Origin: a virus
Lineage: Duplodnaviria; Caudoviricetes
DNA length: 64,000 nucleotides
Direction: 5' to 3' (one strand)
IMG/VR virus record: IMGVR_UViG_3300031857_023573
Span: 64,001-128,000 of that record
The notes under the pieces were generated by a model. The model saw only the letters and a program-made list of their open reading frames with translations. It made no database searches and was not told where the DNA came from. Below, piece after piece: positions 22,761-28,965 of this stretch; the first letter of the stretch is position 1, and each line of letters starts with the position of its first letter. The translations under genes were made by a program, and so were the position numbers.

Positions 22761-22985
22761 ATGAACTTTTTATTTGAGTTTAAAAATTATTATAATCCTG
22801 GTGATATCGTACTTATCGAATATTGGTACAACGGTATGATAACACCTGTAAAAATTTTAGAAAAAGTTTCTAAAAAGTCTTATTTAATCTCTCACAACAT
22901 TCCCCAGTCTAAAATACATTTGGCACCTGATGAAATTATTAAATCATCAGATATTATTGACACTTTTAATAAACAAGTGAATTAA
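22761..22985 (+). CDS. Small SH3/KOW-like hypothetical protein
   Basis: ATG 22761 directly after AATATATA; YNPGDIVLIEY; the longer 22551 start in the track overlaps the opposite gene. Confidence 0.55.
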   Translation: MNFLFEFKNYYNPGDIVLIEYWYNGMITPVKILEKVSKKSYLISHNIPQSKIHLAPDEIIKSSDIIDTFNKQVN

Positions 22986-24120
22986 CCATTACCTCGTAAG
23001 AGATTCTATCATCTGGATTATTCATGTCTAAATACTGATTTTTAATTACTTCAATTTCTTCTTTTGAAAGTGAAGTATTCAAAAACTTGTCTTTCACACT
23101 TTCGTATTTATAGTCAACATCAGTTGTAGTTTTAAAACTAGTTACTTCCATTTCTTTTAACTGGCCTTTTCCAGAGTCATAGTAAGTTCTTGCCTTTCTT
23201 TGCTTTGACATTCCTGAATTATGATAATAATCTTCATCATCATAGTATTGTCCGTAGTCATAATTATGATAGTTCTTATTTGACCAAGATTTAGGCTTTC
23301 TTGAGAATCCTCTTGAATTCCAAGATGTAGCGGTTCTTGAGTCATAAGAATCCCAGTCATATAGGGATTCTTTTTTATTTTTATCTCTTTTTGTTGGTAG
23401 ATTTTCCCAGTCAACATTCAAACAAGCAACTGCTAGCTTGTGTAGATGTAAAATATCTTGACTTTCATTGAAAGTATGTTCTGAGTTATATCCAACTGAG
23501 ATATTAGTACATTCTGAAATTTGAGATACGAATTCAGCTGAGTCTGTATAAACACCAGTTGAATCTGTTTTGTAGGAAAGACCACCTTTATTTAGTTCTT
23601 TTGCTAGAGCTTTTGCAAATTCATCTGAACAGCTTCTAGTTGAAGATTGGTGTGTAATAACTGAATTATTTCCTCTTCGGTCGAATGAAATAATACGGTC
23701 CCAGTTTTGTTCTATTGTTTTAGATCGAAGTGATGATCCGATACAACCAACTTCTTCACCAAAGAAGAAGTAGTAGAGTCCAGGTATTTGGTGTTTCATC
23801 ATCCAAAGCATGATTGTGACACCTGCTTTATCATCAGCTCCTAAGATTGATTTTCCGTCAGTTTTGATGATATTTCCTTGAAATTGATGTTTTACTTCAA
23901 CTTGGTCTTTACAAGCGGTATCAAGGTGGCTTGCAAAAATTGTTCTGCTTTCACCTATTTTGAAAAAATAATTGCCGTGAATATCTTTTTCTAAGTTTTT
24001 TGGGAAAACTCCTGCTTCGGTCATTTCCTCTACTAACTCGTCTTCATACCCATATGGATAGGTCTTTGACGTTAGTTTAATAAATGTGTTTTTAATAAAA
24101 TTGAAAGATTCTTTACTCAT
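22966..24120 (-). CDS. M28/M20-like zinc peptidase
   Basis: ASHLDT, GADDKAG, GEEVG, SFDRRG, EHT metal-ligand motifs. Confidence 0.8.
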   Translation of the reverse strand: MSKESFNFIKNTFIKLTSKTYPYGYEDELVEEMTEAGVFPKNLEKDIHGNYFFKIGESRTIFASHLDTACKDQVEVKHQFQGNIIKTDGKSILGADDKAGVTIMLWMMKHQIPGLYYFFFGEEVGCIGSSLRSKTIEQNWDRIISFDRRGNNSVITHQSSTRSCSDEFAKALAKELNKGGLSYKTDSTGVYTDSAEFVSQISECTNISVGYNSEHTFNESQDILHLHKLAVACLNVDWENLPTKRDKNKKESLYDWDSYDSRTATSWNSRGFSRKPKSWSNKNYHNYDYGQYYDDEDYYHNSGMSKQRKARTYYDSGKGQLKEMEVTSFKTTTDVDYKYESVKDKFLNTSLSKEEIEVIKNQYLDMNNPDDRISYEVMVNSLVY

Positions 24121-24311
24121 TAGAGCTAATATAAGATAAATATATCAAAAATCCAAATTTGTTGAAGTCTTTTTTGGTAAAGGTTTCTGAAAAATAGTGT
24201 CAAAATTACTCATAAAAAATCCGAATACCGAATTTAAACAAAAATATTTTTTGATATATAACAACATGATTCTTGGAACATGATTTCAAGAACCAAAAAA
24301 TAAATATCAAT

Positions 24312-24953
24312 ATGATAAAAACAATTAAAAGTTTGATGCTGGTATTGACAATGGTATTTGCCTTCAATTTTGCAAGTGCTCAAAATACCTGTTGTACTAA
24401 AAATGGTACTAACGTTCTACCAGAAGCAGGCGAATTCTCAATTGGAATAGATGCAGTTCCAGTTTTAAACTATTTCGGAAATTTCTTTAACAACTCTGGA
24501 AACACAGCAGCTGTTGGTTTCCAACAAGCTGGTGTTATCACTGGTTCTTATATGAAGACTGCAAATACTTCATATCGTGGAAAATTAGCTATCAACTATG
24601 CTACTTCAACTGTAGATTCTACTGATACCCAATCAGCTGGTGTTAATGTAGGAGCTGGTATTTTGAAGTATCGTGGCAAAACTCGTCTACAAGGTTACTA
24701 TGGTGCTGAAGTAGGACTTGGTTTTGGTAGCGGTAAAGTTACAGTAAGTGGTACTGAAACTGAAACACCTTCAACTCTTGGTGTTAATGCTCGTGCATTT
24801 GTTGGAGCTCAATATTTCTTTGCTCCAAAAATGTCAGTTGGAACAGAATACGGTTGGGGACCTGGTTTCTCTAAAGTGGGTGACAATAAATCATCTTTCA
24901 ACCTTGGTGTTGATAACATGGGTGGTTCTATCTACTTGAACCTTTTCTTCTAA
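24312..24953 (+). CDS. Outer-membrane beta-barrel protein with signal peptide
   Basis: MIKTIKSLMLVLTMVFAFNFASA signal; about 8 amphipathic strands; C-terminal IYLNLFF. Confidence 0.8.
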   Translation: MIKTIKSLMLVLTMVFAFNFASAQNTCCTKNGTNVLPEAGEFSIGIDAVPVLNYFGNFFNNSGNTAAVGFQQAGVITGSYMKTANTSYRGKLAINYATSTVDSTDTQSAGVNVGAGILKYRGKTRLQGYYGAEVGLGFGSGKVTVSGTETETPSTLGVNARAFVGAQYFFAPKMSVGTEYGWGPGFSKVGDNKSSFNLGVDNMGGSIYLNLFF

Positions 24954-24978
24954 TATTATACACATATAATAAATGCAT

Positions 24979-25010
24979 CAAAGAGGCTTCGAAAGAGGCC
25001 TCTTTTTTTT
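24979..25010 (+). terminator. Intrinsic terminator
   Basis: aaagaggc/gcctcttt stem plus T-tract. Confidence 0.85.
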
Positions 25011-25032
25011 TAAACTAACCCTTGAATTCCTA

Positions 25033-25138
25033 CTATATAACTTAGCTGTTCGTCAATCTTATGTCGAGTGTTCAGTGTGACACTTTTAAGAGTTTGAAAA
25101 GACTCAAAGATATAGGATAAAAAATAAAAAGAATAACT
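25033..25138 (+). promoter_or_regulatory. Structured 5' leader
   Basis: tctta-agtgt/acact-taaga hairpin; GAGUUU-GAAA-AGACUC GNRA hairpin; 11-nt complement to the 3' UTR. Confidence 0.5.
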
Positions 25139-26068
25139 ATGAAAGTTAAACAAACAAAAGGCACTAATTTGCCAAGTGCTTGGATCGTAAGTCCAAAAGA
25201 TAAAGGCAGAAAATCAATCAAGGGAGATAAAATCTATCTCGATGATAATCAAGAATTTGAAATCGAAATCTTCAACCCCTTAAAAGAATCAGTACTAGCT
25301 GATATTCGTTTAAACGGTAGTTCAATTGCTAAAACCGGTCTAGTTATCAAACCAGGCCAAAGAGTCTACTTAGATTGTTTTGTTGATGATAGAAAGAAAT
25401 TTATATTTCAAACCTATCAAATCGATGGAAGTCAAGAATCAATTGATGCAACCTCTGATAACGGTCTACTTGAAGTATTTTTCTACAAAGAACAAGCAGT
25501 CACACTTCAAAACTGGGCTGATAGATTTCATAAAGTTGTAATTCATGAATACTATCCAGTGTATCCTGTATACACAAGATGGTATCCTTACTCCGGAACT
25601 ATTTTGACTGGTGGTATAACTACTGACACAATTACTTCTGGAACAACTTTAACCAACACAAACGGTTCAAATGCTATTTTTAGTACAAATAGTGGAAATT
25701 TTACTGTTGGTAACAGTTATAATTCTGGAACTCTTACTTCTTGCAATACTGCTTATTACAATTCACCAGTAGCTGATCCTCTTGAAACCGGTAGAGTTGA
25801 AAAAGGTGAGAAATCTAATCAGCAATTTGTTGATGTTGATATGGAGTTTGAAAAGAACCACATACACCATCTTGTATATCAACTTCTACCAAGCTCAAGG
25901 AAACCAAAAGAAGTTAAAGATTTTTCAAAAAATTATGATAAAAAAACAAACAGAAATTCAGATGACACAATTGAGTTAATTAAAAAGCTCTCTGATTTAC
26001 ACTCAGCTGGCATCTTAACAGATGAAGAGTTTTCTAATAAAAAGTCTGAACTACTCAGTAAAATTTAA
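25139..26068 (+). CDS. Hypothetical protein with C-terminal SHOCT domain
   Basis: LIKKLSDLHSAGILTDEEFSNKKSELL; T/S/N-rich middle region. Confidence 0.75.
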   Translation: MKVKQTKGTNLPSAWIVSPKDKGRKSIKGDKIYLDDNQEFEIEIFNPLKESVLADIRLNGSSIAKTGLVIKPGQRVYLDCFVDDRKKFIFQTYQIDGSQESIDATSDNGLLEVFFYKEQAVTLQNWADRFHKVVIHEYYPVYPVYTRWYPYSGTILTGGITTDTITSGTTLTNTNGSNAIFSTNSGNFTVGNSYNSGTLTSCNTAYYNSPVADPLETGRVEKGEKSNQQFVDVDMEFEKNHIHHLVYQLLPSSRKPKEVKDFSKNYDKKTNRNSDDTIELIKKLSDLHSAGILTDEEFSNKKSELLSKI

Positions 26069-26094
26069 AGAACCAAACGAACAGCTATAAATCT

Positions 26095-26124
26095 AAAAAG
26101 AGAGTCATTTGACTCTCTTTTTTT
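26095..26124 (+). terminator. Intrinsic terminator (bidirectional geometry)
   Basis: aaaaagagagtc-attt-gactctcttttt. Confidence 0.85.
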
Positions 26125-26136
26125 ATATATACTCTT

Positions 26137-27510
26137 ATGAGACTTAAAAAGTATCTAGAATTTATCAAAGAATCTGTAAAAAACGATTCAATGTACTGGA
26201 TTAGTGAAGATGAAATTAAAGATATTTTCAAATTCATTACTGATGAAGGTTATCCACTCAGTATCACAAAAGTGCTTTTTGGCCATTCTGGATATTCTGA
26301 GCACGGTAACAATCACATTAGAAATTCAAAAGAATTAGTCTTGTTTGATATAAACCAAGATGATGTTGTACTAAGAGGTGAAGAGTATATGCCTGGATAT
26401 AGAATATCAATCATTATAAGTCAGTCTAAAGGTGACAATGTAACAGATGAATTTCGAAGTGCTATTTCTCAATTAAAAGGCGAAGGGTATGTAGTTGATA
26501 CAGTTGAAGATGAAGATGGTAAGACTAATTTGGAAAATATACACCTTTTAGATGGTTCTATTGTGACTTGGATACCAGAAACTCCTAACAAACCATTTAC
26601 TACCGATCCAGATGAGATGTCAGATGGTGATGTTTATATCAGTTCTTCTGAACTTGTCATTTTAGTTCATCAACCAGAAGAGGTTAAATTTACCGAGAAA
26701 ATGTTGGCTGAAATCTATGACTGGAAATGTGATAGAATAGAAGGCGACAAAATCTACTGTCATGTTGATATAGAAGATATGGCAAGATCTGTTCTTTCAA
26801 GAAGAGATTATGAAAGATGGGGTAAAATGCTAGAAGAAGGAATCGATATTGACAACTACTATGGAGAAGGCTACTATCCAGACATAAGTAGTGTTTTTCA
26901 ATATACACTAAACAAAGAAGCAACTACTCTATTAGTAAAAGTAATTATTAAAGAGTTAGGCGGCCTTGAATCAGCTCTCACTGAACTTGAAGGTGAAGAG
27001 ATCTATGAAAGTCTTTCTGGAAAGTCCGAAGACGAGGTTATTGATATTCTTTTAAAAGAAAGATTTAAAAGAAGTTTAGAAAAACTATCACAAGATTCTG
27101 AAATAATGTCAACAGTTAGAGAAACTATTGCAGATTGGGAAAGACAAGCACATTGTGACGCAAATTGGGATGAATTGATATCTGAATTTGATGAAATTGT
27201 ATCAGATGTCACTGAATATACTAAACTTGAAAAAGAAGTTGATAAGTACTACATGAAGAAAGACACTCGTGAAAAAGTTTGGTATAAATCAGTAGTGACT
27301 CATTATGAGATACCATTTCAAGATAAATGGATTGAAGAGTATGGAAAGTCACTTAGAGGATATTCACTTGATGCACTATTTCAAGAATGGTGTTCTGATG
27401 AATATTTAGATTACAAATTGGAACCAAGATTTAATGACTGGGGTGACGTTGATTCTGATGCCCTAAATAAAGAGATTATATCAATATTAAACTACAATTT
27501 AAAGTCCTAA
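26137..27510 (+). CDS. Acidic hypothetical protein, putative internal head protein
   Basis: N-terminus MRLKKYLEFIKES resembles the T4 capsid-targeting sequence. Confidence 0.6.
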   Translation: MRLKKYLEFIKESVKNDSMYWISEDEIKDIFKFITDEGYPLSITKVLFGHSGYSEHGNNHIRNSKELVLFDINQDDVVLRGEEYMPGYRISIIISQSKGDNVTDEFRSAISQLKGEGYVVDTVEDEDGKTNLENIHLLDGSIVTWIPETPNKPFTTDPDEMSDGDVYISSSELVILVHQPEEVKFTEKMLAEIYDWKCDRIEGDKIYCHVDIEDMARSVLSRRDYERWGKMLEEGIDIDNYYGEGYYPDISSVFQYTLNKEATTLLVKVIIKELGGLESALTELEGEEIYESLSGKSEDEVIDILLKERFKRSLEKLSQDSEIMSTVRETIADWERQAHCDANWDELISEFDEIVSDVTEYTKLEKEVDKYYMKKDTREKVWYKSVVTHYEIPFQDKWIEEYGKSLRGYSLDALFQEWCSDEYLDYKLEPRFNDWGDVDSDALNKEIISILNYNLKS

Positions 27511-27720: not shown

Positions 27721-28224
27721 ATGTTAAATTTTAACGATTTTATAGAAGAATCTTATCTTGAATCAAATTTTGCACCAATATATCATTTTACAAATAATTA
27801 CTACCTTCTTACAATTTTAAGAGAAAATGTTTTAAAAGTTGGTTGGTTTGATAATCCTTTCTTTGGTAAGAATGTTAAAATTGTTTCATTTACTCGAAAT
27901 AATAAACTGAATGTAGGTAATTATAAAACTGATTTAAATGTGATACTATGTGTTGATAAAAATAAAATGTTATTAGATGGGTATAAATTATATCCATATG
28001 ATTACTTCATTCAAAGTGGCAAAGAGATCCATACAAAATCTAATATTTTAAGATCTAAACCTTTTGAATTTGAAGAGGCTTCAAATGTTGATATTATCAA
28101 CATAGATAAGTATATTATATATGTTGATTTTCTAGAAGACTCTCTATTTGACTCATCAACATCTATCAACATTTTAAAGAAAAAAAATATACCAATTTAT
28201 GAAGCCGGTAGAAGATTATTTTGA
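27721..28224 (+). CDS. Putative ADP-ribosyltransferase-fold protein with capsid-targeting-like N-terminus
   Basis: YHFT ... VSFTR ... EFEE spacing; MLNFNDFIEES. Confidence 0.45.
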   Translation: MLNFNDFIEESYLESNFAPIYHFTNNYYLLTILRENVLKVGWFDNPFFGKNVKIVSFTRNNKLNVGNYKTDLNVILCVDKNKMLLDGYKLYPYDYFIQSGKEIHTKSNILRSKPFEFEEASNVDIINIDKYIIYVDFLEDSLFDSSTSINILKKKNIPIYEAGRRLF

Positions 28225-28402
28225 GTATTTAAAAATAGAATTATCAAAGTATGATTCTCCTTTTTTTAAAGTTGTTCTTGAAAAGATAGAAAATTGGAAA
28301 GATTATGAAAATCTAAGTGGAGTCAATAAAATGTTGTTTTTTCTACTAGATGTAGAAAATGTTAAGATAGCAACTTTTACAGAGTGGCAAAGAATAGATT
28401 AA
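28199..28402 (+). CDS. Hypothetical protein
   Basis: 67-aa ORF overlapping the previous stop region. Confidence 0.5.
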   Translation: MKPVEDYFEYLKIELSKYDSPFFKVVLEKIENWKDYENLSGVNKMLFFLLDVENVKIATFTEWQRID

Positions 28403-28965
28403 CTTATATTCAAATAATCTTTCATTTGTCCGATCATATACTGGGTAATTAGATCAGAAGCATTTATTGAATTTAAATACTTAACATCTACTTTCACTGA
28501 TTGAGATTTCTTCTCTGTTTCTGAACCATCTCCAGTTGGCATAATCTCGTGATAATCTCTTTCCATTAATTGAATAATACAAGGATGATATTTAGAAGAA
28601 TTACCCTTTGAAACATAAAGTGGTTTCATAAATTCTACCTTATAATCTGGACTTATTACAAGACCAGCCTCTTCTTCAATTTCTCTGAGTATTGCCCTTT
28701 CAGGTGATTCACCAGCTTCAATACCACCACTTAAAACTGTAACGTGATATTCTTGACCATCTCTATATTTGAAAGTAGGAATATACTCATGTCTAAGAAT
28801 TATTTGATTTGTTTCAGCCAAATAAGGTATACAAATAACAAAATCTGATTCTTTTATTATAGACCATCCTTCATAGTCTAAAAGTTTCATATAATCATTT
28901 TCAAAAAGAACTTTTTCTTTTTGTTCGTAGTCAGATTTGGGTTTGAGTTTTGAGAATTGTTGCAT
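28399..28965 (-). CDS. NUDIX hydrolase (ADP-ribose pyrophosphatase-like)
   Basis: Nudix box GGIEAGESPERAILREIEEEAGL. Confidence 0.88.
   Translation of the reverse strand: MQQFSKLKPKSDYEQKEKVLFENDYMKLLDYEGWSIIKESDFVICIPYLAETNQIILRHEYIPTFKYRDGQEYHVTVLSGGIEAGESPERAILREIEEEAGLVISPDYKVEFMKPLYVSKGNSSKYHPCIIQLMERDYHEIMPTGDGSETEKKSQSVKVDVKYLNSINASDLITQYMIGQMKDYLNIS

Follow-up and report, generated by a model that had tools for sequence, protein, structure and literature searches.

A gene bracketed by two short, mutually complementary sequences can be read in several ways: the sequences may pair in the messenger RNA and hold its two ends together, they may act as DNA sites for inversion or excision, or they may be complementary by chance. 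In this study, we ask which of these readings applies to one such locus in a stretch of 64,000 nt of viral DNA, which as a whole is termed the window in the following. Positions are those of the window, and features lie on its plus strand unless stated otherwise.

The original prediction described the sequence TAGCTGTTCGT (25043–25053), just after a TATATA motif, as the exact 11-nt reverse complement of ACGAACAGCTA (26077–26087), just before a terminator, and each of these elements was located. On its 5′ side, the unit is limited by the intrinsic terminator of the upstream, outer-membrane-protein-like gene (24980–25005), which consists of an 11-pair stem followed by a T-run. The promoter-like TATATA box (25034–25039) is nearly invariant as AATATATA in homologous loci and keeps a fixed distance to the 5′ arm, lying four bases upstream of the conserved arm core (25044–25052; AGCUGUUCG). 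Downstream of the arm, a leader RNA with a three-way junction (25057–25117), whose helices P1, P2 and P3 are conserved and covarying, is followed by an A-rich translation initiation region without a Shine-Dalgarno sequence (25118–25138), which ends in the gene-specific sequence GAAUAACU (25131–25138). The coding sequence (25139–26068) specifies 309 amino acids with a C-terminal SHOCT domain. The 3′ arm lies 9 nt past the end of the stop codon and 7 nt before the stem of the unit's own intrinsic terminator (26095–26122; 12-pair stem and T-run), the position of which is kept in homologous loci. Box, 5′ arm, Y-shaped leader, open reading frame (ORF), 3′ arm and terminator would thereby be joined in one monocistronic mRNA of ~1.08 kb. 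Further exact copies of the repeat arm were not found elsewhere in the window.

The predicted SHOCT product was recovered with Pfam: PF09851 matches the C-terminal residues 281–306 with 28.4 bits, at a gathering cut-off of 27. AlphaFold (alignment of 46 sequences, mean pLDDT 72) predicts a beta-sandwich formed by residues ~10–120 and 215–251 in addition to the SHOCT helices, and a Ser/Thr/Asn/Gly-rich low-complexity linker (residues 133–210) is predicted to be disordered. A search of PDB sequences gave no match, and Foldseek gave none at E ≤0.001, returning generic Ig-like sandwiches only. Matches in PHROGs cover residues 231–307, at or around the SHOCT tail, and all belong to families of unknown function. 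Nearly all structural neighbors in the ESM Atlas are hypothetical proteins of viruses, and in some of them a zinc ribbon replaces SHOCT. Inside the ORF, a 32-nt direct repeat with 72% identity (25289–25320 and 25763–25794, encoding the LADIRLNG and VADPLETG regions) may be the trace of an internal duplication between two beta-strand regions. Also, a joint that leaves out 418 nt of the ORF (25363–25782) is present in contigs of two DNA runs, with a shorter side of only 21 nt; this joint may come from a relative or from an internal AAACCGGT-type repeat.

The window has a G+C content of ~30%. Two uncultured phages, 635 and 642 kb in size, are the closest DNA relatives of the window, with 70–72% identity across the gene; further homologous loci are located on freshwater-lake contigs and on viral contigs that reach 493 kb. 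Judged by the size of these relatives and by the large viral and freshwater-lake contigs that carry the homologous loci, the source is a huge freshwater phage. The gene upstream of the unit (24273–24953), located between a peptidase gene and the unit, is outer-membrane beta-barrel-like, encodes a signal peptide and a C-terminal Phe and has a terminator of its own. At the same place it is absent from the 635-kb and 642-kb phages (L001 and L002), so this spot takes up insertions.

Viewed in the window alone, the repeat is not exceptional. Exact 11-mer inverted pairs with a spacing of 200–1200 nt occur 81 times in the window versus 67±13 times in Markov shuffles, and a second exact 11-nt inverted pair lies inside the ORF, within the same 1.3 kb. 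For a match of at least 11 nt between these two flanks, p is ~0.009 per gene, which corresponds to about one case per two windows of this size. The 11-nt repeat of the single sequence is within chance, and its reality is established by comparative data.

For the comparison, we used 110 homologous loci (45–84% protein identity) on contigs of huge phages and lake metagenomes; these loci contain 84 distinct pairs of 5′ and 3′ flanks. Separate alignments were made for the 5′ and for the 3′ flanks to keep one from being fitted to the other, and the pairs were then read in the register of the window. Both anchors were present in 79 loci with 65 distinct arm haplotypes, and in these 79 loci the arms lie between promoter box and terminator; locus L021, in which the leader is replaced, was left out. 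The 9-bp core AGCUGUUCG/CGAACAGCU (offsets −4 to +4) is paired in 58–65 of the 65 haplotypes. Two-sided changes that keep the pair were detected at seven offsets (−6, −4, −3, −2, +3, +4 and +5). At offset +4, for example, the pair is GC in 35, GU in 11, UA in 6, AU in 3 and CG in 3 haplotypes; at offset +3 it is CG in 56 and AU in 7, and at offset −3 GC in 55, AU in 5 and GU in 4. Variants of whole arms (5′/3′) include UAUAGCUGUUAU/AUAACAGCUAUA, GCUGUUACAC/GUGUAACAGC, GUAACUGUUCG/CGAACAGUUAC, CAACUGUUCAUAUU/AAUAUGAACAGUUG, UUUUGAGCUGUUC/GAACAGCUCAAAA and UUAGAUGUUCAC/GUGAACAUCUAA. Helices of 9 to 16 bp occur among the haplotypes, and most helices have 9 to 13 bp.

Several controls show that this pairing is specific for the partners of each locus. 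The mean contiguous helix measures 10.6 bp versus 8.81±0.18 bp with permuted partners, the maximum of 2000 permutations being 9.5 bp. In register, 11.1 of 13 positions are paired, versus 3.5–6.0 when the arms are slid by 1–3 positions. Duplexes between the 5′ segment and the 3′ UTR of the same locus have an energy of −16.5 kcal/mol, compared to −13.4±0.25 kcal/mol for permuted and −7.9 kcal/mol for shuffled partners. When pair states were mapped on a protein tree built with FastTree, at least 14 changes from one Watson-Crick pair type to another were required for the core and 20 further ones for the flanks, a count that recombination between gene and UTRs could somewhat inflate. When whole predicted mRNAs (978–1177 nt) were folded, the helix was part of the minimum free energy structure with a pair probability of ~1 in all 14 loci. 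The two ends thus coevolve in homologous loci, as the original prediction of complementary UTR ends would lead one to expect.

The reading as functionless chance complementarity, passed on by shared ancestry, draws on the p value of only ~0.009 for this gene and on the abundance of such 11-mers in the window. The at least 14 independent Watson-Crick-to-Watson-Crick switches of the core stand against it, as does the result that none of the 2000 partner permutations reached the observed helix length; together with the duplex-energy control, this effectively refutes it, and we give it next to no probability. Because matching mutations keep the pairing across relatives, the long-range helix is very probably a real RNA structure under selection. 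Compensatory mutation that occurred naturally and was repeated many times makes the support for the helix about as strong as comparative data can provide.

The helix is not found with every homologue. One minority lineage (L017, L024, L107, L109, probably L015 and L026, and also L105) keeps gene and leader with no 3′ arm, its terminator following directly after the stop codon. Loss of the complementarity despite conservation of the gene is therefore seen in this minority lineage only and not in most lineages. Since the lineage keeps the gene, the helix is dispensable there, and since it also keeps the three-way-junction leader, leader and helix are separable. In L021, a homing-endonuclease-like insertion (1270–1470 of that locus) displaced the promoter, the 5′ arm and the Y-shaped leader, and the gene persists. 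On this viral contig, the insertion comprises an upstream ORF whose C-terminus is homing-endonuclease-like, and of the two arms only the 3′ arm, AATAACAGCTATA, remains as an orphan. Within the window, a crude scan from TATATA boxes to terminators revealed no other unit closed in this way, with 11 nt of complementarity here versus at most 7 nt in 20 other pairs and with only 7 terminators detected by the terminator finder.

The original prediction offered two readings of the complementary ends, a panhandle mRNA and DNA sites for inversion or excision. According to the second, the arms act as DNA, either as ends of an invertible or excisable cassette or as paired operator sites for a DNA-binding protein. 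It is attractive inasmuch as the inverted repeats bracket a self-contained gene unit and the neighboring genes vary between phages. However, both arms are located inside the promoter–terminator unit in every lineage. The inverted order was found in no locus: in each of the 84 distinct flank pairs, the terminator comes after the stop codon, and L021 is the only one in which the gene is not preceded by promoter box and leader. In contigs from two DNA runs, each arm is bridged in the reference order without any strand-change joint, although contigs can miss rare forms. Two runs labelled RNA-Seq, in which only small, diverged pieces are present as contigs, are probably DNA. The arm sequences also diverge between lineages and yet stay complementary, for which a site shared by one protein would need co-evolution. 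For recombinases, five neighboring ORFs were scanned with Pfam (22966–24120, 24273–24953, 26137–27510, 27721–28224 and 28399–28965) and three of these with PHROGs; a peptidase, a NUDIX protein and unknowns were found, and no match to a recombinase family.

The wobble pairs of the long-range helix contribute a further, weaker argument. G.U pairs occur in 21 haplotypes versus 10 for A.C, and on the tree there are 13 changes of state for G.U versus 10 for A.C (8 versus 3 in the interior, offsets −3 to +3). This asymmetry is only suggestive of RNA rather than DNA, and the excess of G.U over A.C is not decisive against DNA sites. Taken together, the DNA reading is very improbable: with one orientation in all loci and no strand-change joints in the contigs, inversion or excision sites were not borne out. 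The panhandle mRNA, in contrast, is strongly supported by compensatory evolution in ~65 haplotypes and by the folding of whole mRNAs.

The leader provides information on the strand that is transcribed. The original prediction listed two leader hairpins, one of them with a GAAA loop, and both are real: they correspond to P2 (25067–25071/25080–25084) and P3 (25090–25095/25100–25105, loop 25096–25099). Missing from it was the helix P1 (25057–25065/25109–25117), which encloses P2 and P3. For an alignment of 52 distinct leader sequences, RNAalifold yields the three-way junction. In this alignment, 97.7% of the cells are paired versus 85.8±0.6% in shuffles and 32–51% in slid registers; two-sided changes occur in 14 of the 19 leader pairs, and none of 500 shuffles reaches any of the observed measures. 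P1 contains one invariant G.U pair (52 of 52 sequences) and a second G.U in 42 of 52, which on the other strand would be C.A. From these pairs it follows that the plus strand acts as RNA from at least 25057 onwards.

A search of Rfam 15 with the region 24000–27000 gave no relevant match to the leader at E values up to 1. The covariance model of the leader has one match in the window (113 bits) and exactly one match per genome in five phage genomes of 313–642 kb, always before a homologue of the gene. A candidate second copy on the minus strand (23360–23465; 21.9 bits, E 0.14), inside the peptidase gene, was taken as noise. Since Rfam holds no match and the element is present in single copy per phage genome and always before this gene, the leader is a new, gene-specific and selected cis-RNA three-way junction.

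The position of the transcript start was deduced from the spacing of the TATATA box. In the window, a TATATA box ends 2–5 nt upstream of the ATG in 7 of 49 ORFs, in five of them at exactly 4 nt. One of these cases is at 26126–26139, and further boxes precede the ATGs at 27721, 53548 and 54107 on the plus strand and at 28965 and 22747 on the minus strand. For the downstream gene, the distance from box end to ATG is 4–6 nt in 44 homologous loci. The TATATA-box genes thus look like leaderless mRNAs transcribed from a phage-specific promoter box, with a predicted +1 about five bases past the box. In the unit itself, the first paired base of the 5′ arm is located 5–7 nt past the box in 36 of 64 haplotypes. 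From this spacing, and from the same box being found 4–6 nt before the ATG of other genes, we infer a transcript start at about A25044, where the conserved core begins. With such a start, the extreme 5′ end of the message is predicted to be double-stranded.

At the other end, 50 of 64 haplotypes have the 5′-most base of the 3′ arm 11–14 nt past the first base of the stop codon, a distance that is roughly the reach of a terminating ribosome. The spacer between arm and terminator is variable (0 to about 9 nt, with 7 nt in the window), and a conserved stacking of the long-range helix on the terminator was rejected on account of this variation.

In the proposed arrangement, the first 9–14 nt of the message would pair with a stretch of the 3′ UTR that ends a few nucleotides short of the terminator hairpin, and the message would be closed end to end. 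In a complete message, such closure would keep ribonucleases away from both the 5′ end and the 3′ UTR. Protection from nucleases is favored because the layout is almost that of the hbs mRNA of B. subtilis. We therefore consider an end-to-end closed mRNA with a mainly nuclease-protective role to be the best explanation and somewhat probable as such, and give about even chances to stabilization of the full-length message being the main role of the helix.

The same helix could also lower expression by serving as a ribonuclease processing or decay site, for instance for an RNase III-type cut. There is a precedent in icaR, where the duplex of 5′ and 3′ UTR is a substrate of RNase III (PMC3868564), and helices of 9–16 bp do occur among the haplotypes. 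Unlike in icaR, however, the helix is situated away from the ribosome-binding region. Also, RNase III usually needs roughly two helical turns, and most of the helices, with 9–13 bp, are below this length. A decay site is thus improbable.

A different role would be that the tail of the message licenses its translation. The nascent 5′ arm would first pair weakly with GAAUAACU before the AUG and hinder initiation; once transcribed, the 3′ UTR, as the better complement, would capture the 5′ arm and free the start, and only complete messages would be translated. Some features of the start region fit with this. Apart from one mismatch and one G.U, GAAUAACU (25131–25138) is the complement of AGCUGUUC, and the pre-AUG motif AGAATAACTA (25131–25138) matches the 3′ arm CGAACAGCTA (26078–26087) at 7 of 10 positions, like a weakened copy. 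GAATA before the ATG is gene-specific, being present in 2 of 46 ORFs of the window. The energy of the duplex between arm and start region is −5.27 versus −4.86±0.11 with permuted partners (reached by 0 of 300) and −2.5 with shuffled ones. When the RNA is truncated at +60, pairing of the arm with positions −12 to +6 has a probability >0.6 in 6 of 10 loci; this pairing is gone in the full-length RNA, and from cut to full-length RNA the accessibility of the start region rises from 0.53–0.67 to 0.79–0.87 in five loci.

The interaction between arm and start region is weak (−2 to −9 kcal/mol), however, and it is absent in the clades with GUUA arms (L016 and L082 groups; −2.1) and not seen in 3 of 10 loci. 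In the window itself, the accessibility of the start region barely shifts (0.64 to 0.68). Position-specific compensatory changes between arm and start region were not seen, and a broader first test of this pairing gave no signal (−6.0 versus −5.9), probably being confounded by the sequence of P1. Licensing by the tail is accordingly a minor possibility; it can coexist with stabilization of the message. If true, it would represent a 3′-end-dependent switch in a host without Shine-Dalgarno sites, by which only complete and intact messages are translated. More tentatively still, the Y-shaped leader and both arms may form one device, in which the 5′ arm would switch partners, binding the start-codon region in the off state and the 3′ UTR in the on state, and the junction may sense a protein or small molecule; we regard this as unlikely. 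Circularization of the mRNA, in which a ligase/kinase pair of the phage would join the juxtaposed ends, is hardly to be expected.

The message closed end to end for its protection remains our preferred reading. If the helix sets the stability of the message or licenses its translation, the locus would demonstrate post-transcriptional tuning of a single gene in huge phages, in hosts without Shine-Dalgarno sites; the host of this phage is probably one without Shine-Dalgarno usage. It would also provide a compact, portable module for closing an mRNA, since the unit is small (~1.1 kb) and self-contained.

To our knowledge, pairing between the 5′ and 3′ UTR of the same mRNA is experimentally documented in a handful of bacterial messages (hbs, icaR and type I toxins), and we know of no dsDNA phage gene for which it has been established. 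The closest parallel is hbs of B. subtilis, in which 14 nt of the 5′ UTR form a helix with a sequence located shortly before the terminator; this pairing was demonstrated with engineered compensatory mutants, and it limits cleavage by RNase Y and decay from the 3′ side (Braun, Durand and Condon 2017; PMC5737220). Both messages are monocistronic and have short, fully complementary segments in the two UTRs (14 nt in hbs, 9–14 nt in the phage gene), a structured leader and a 3′ segment just upstream of an intrinsic terminator. In both, compensatory changes support the pairing, engineered ones in hbs and natural ones in the phage loci. They differ in the position of the 5′ segment, which in hbs lies within the leader, after hairpin 2, and overlaps the RNase Y site, whereas the phage arm precedes the three-way junction and coincides with the predicted 5′ terminus or lies no more than a few bases from it. 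Also, hbs rests on mutants in one species, and the phage case on ~65 natural haplotypes at the level of sequence.

Full-length type I toxin mRNAs of the hok and aapA type are closed by pairing of their extreme 5′ terminus with their 3′ end, and the 5′ element can instead pair close to the start of translation. They code for small toxic peptides and stay inert in the closed form until trimming of the 3′ end; the system also includes an antisense RNA. The phage gene may resemble them: its 5′ arm pairs with the 3′ end and, judged by the box spacing, would lie at the true 5′ terminus, and this arm may have an alternative partner near the start, a weak signal found in some clades only. Its product, however, is a soluble-looking beta-sandwich/SHOCT protein of 309 amino acids and not a small hydrophobic toxic peptide, and no antisense RNA is evident at the locus. 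Any switch in the phage gene would also run in reverse logic, with the tail activating.

In the icaR mRNA of Staphylococcus aureus, the 3′ UTR pairs with the Shine-Dalgarno region, thereby blocking initiation and creating an RNase III site (PMC3868564). The phage mRNA shares with it the pairing of the 3′ UTR with its own 5′ UTR, but the partner of the phage 3′ arm (25043–25053) is located ~85 nt upstream of the AUG, and the phage gene has no Shine-Dalgarno site. What is new here is an hbs-like long-range interaction in a phage gene, joined to a leader RNA that is absent from Rfam.
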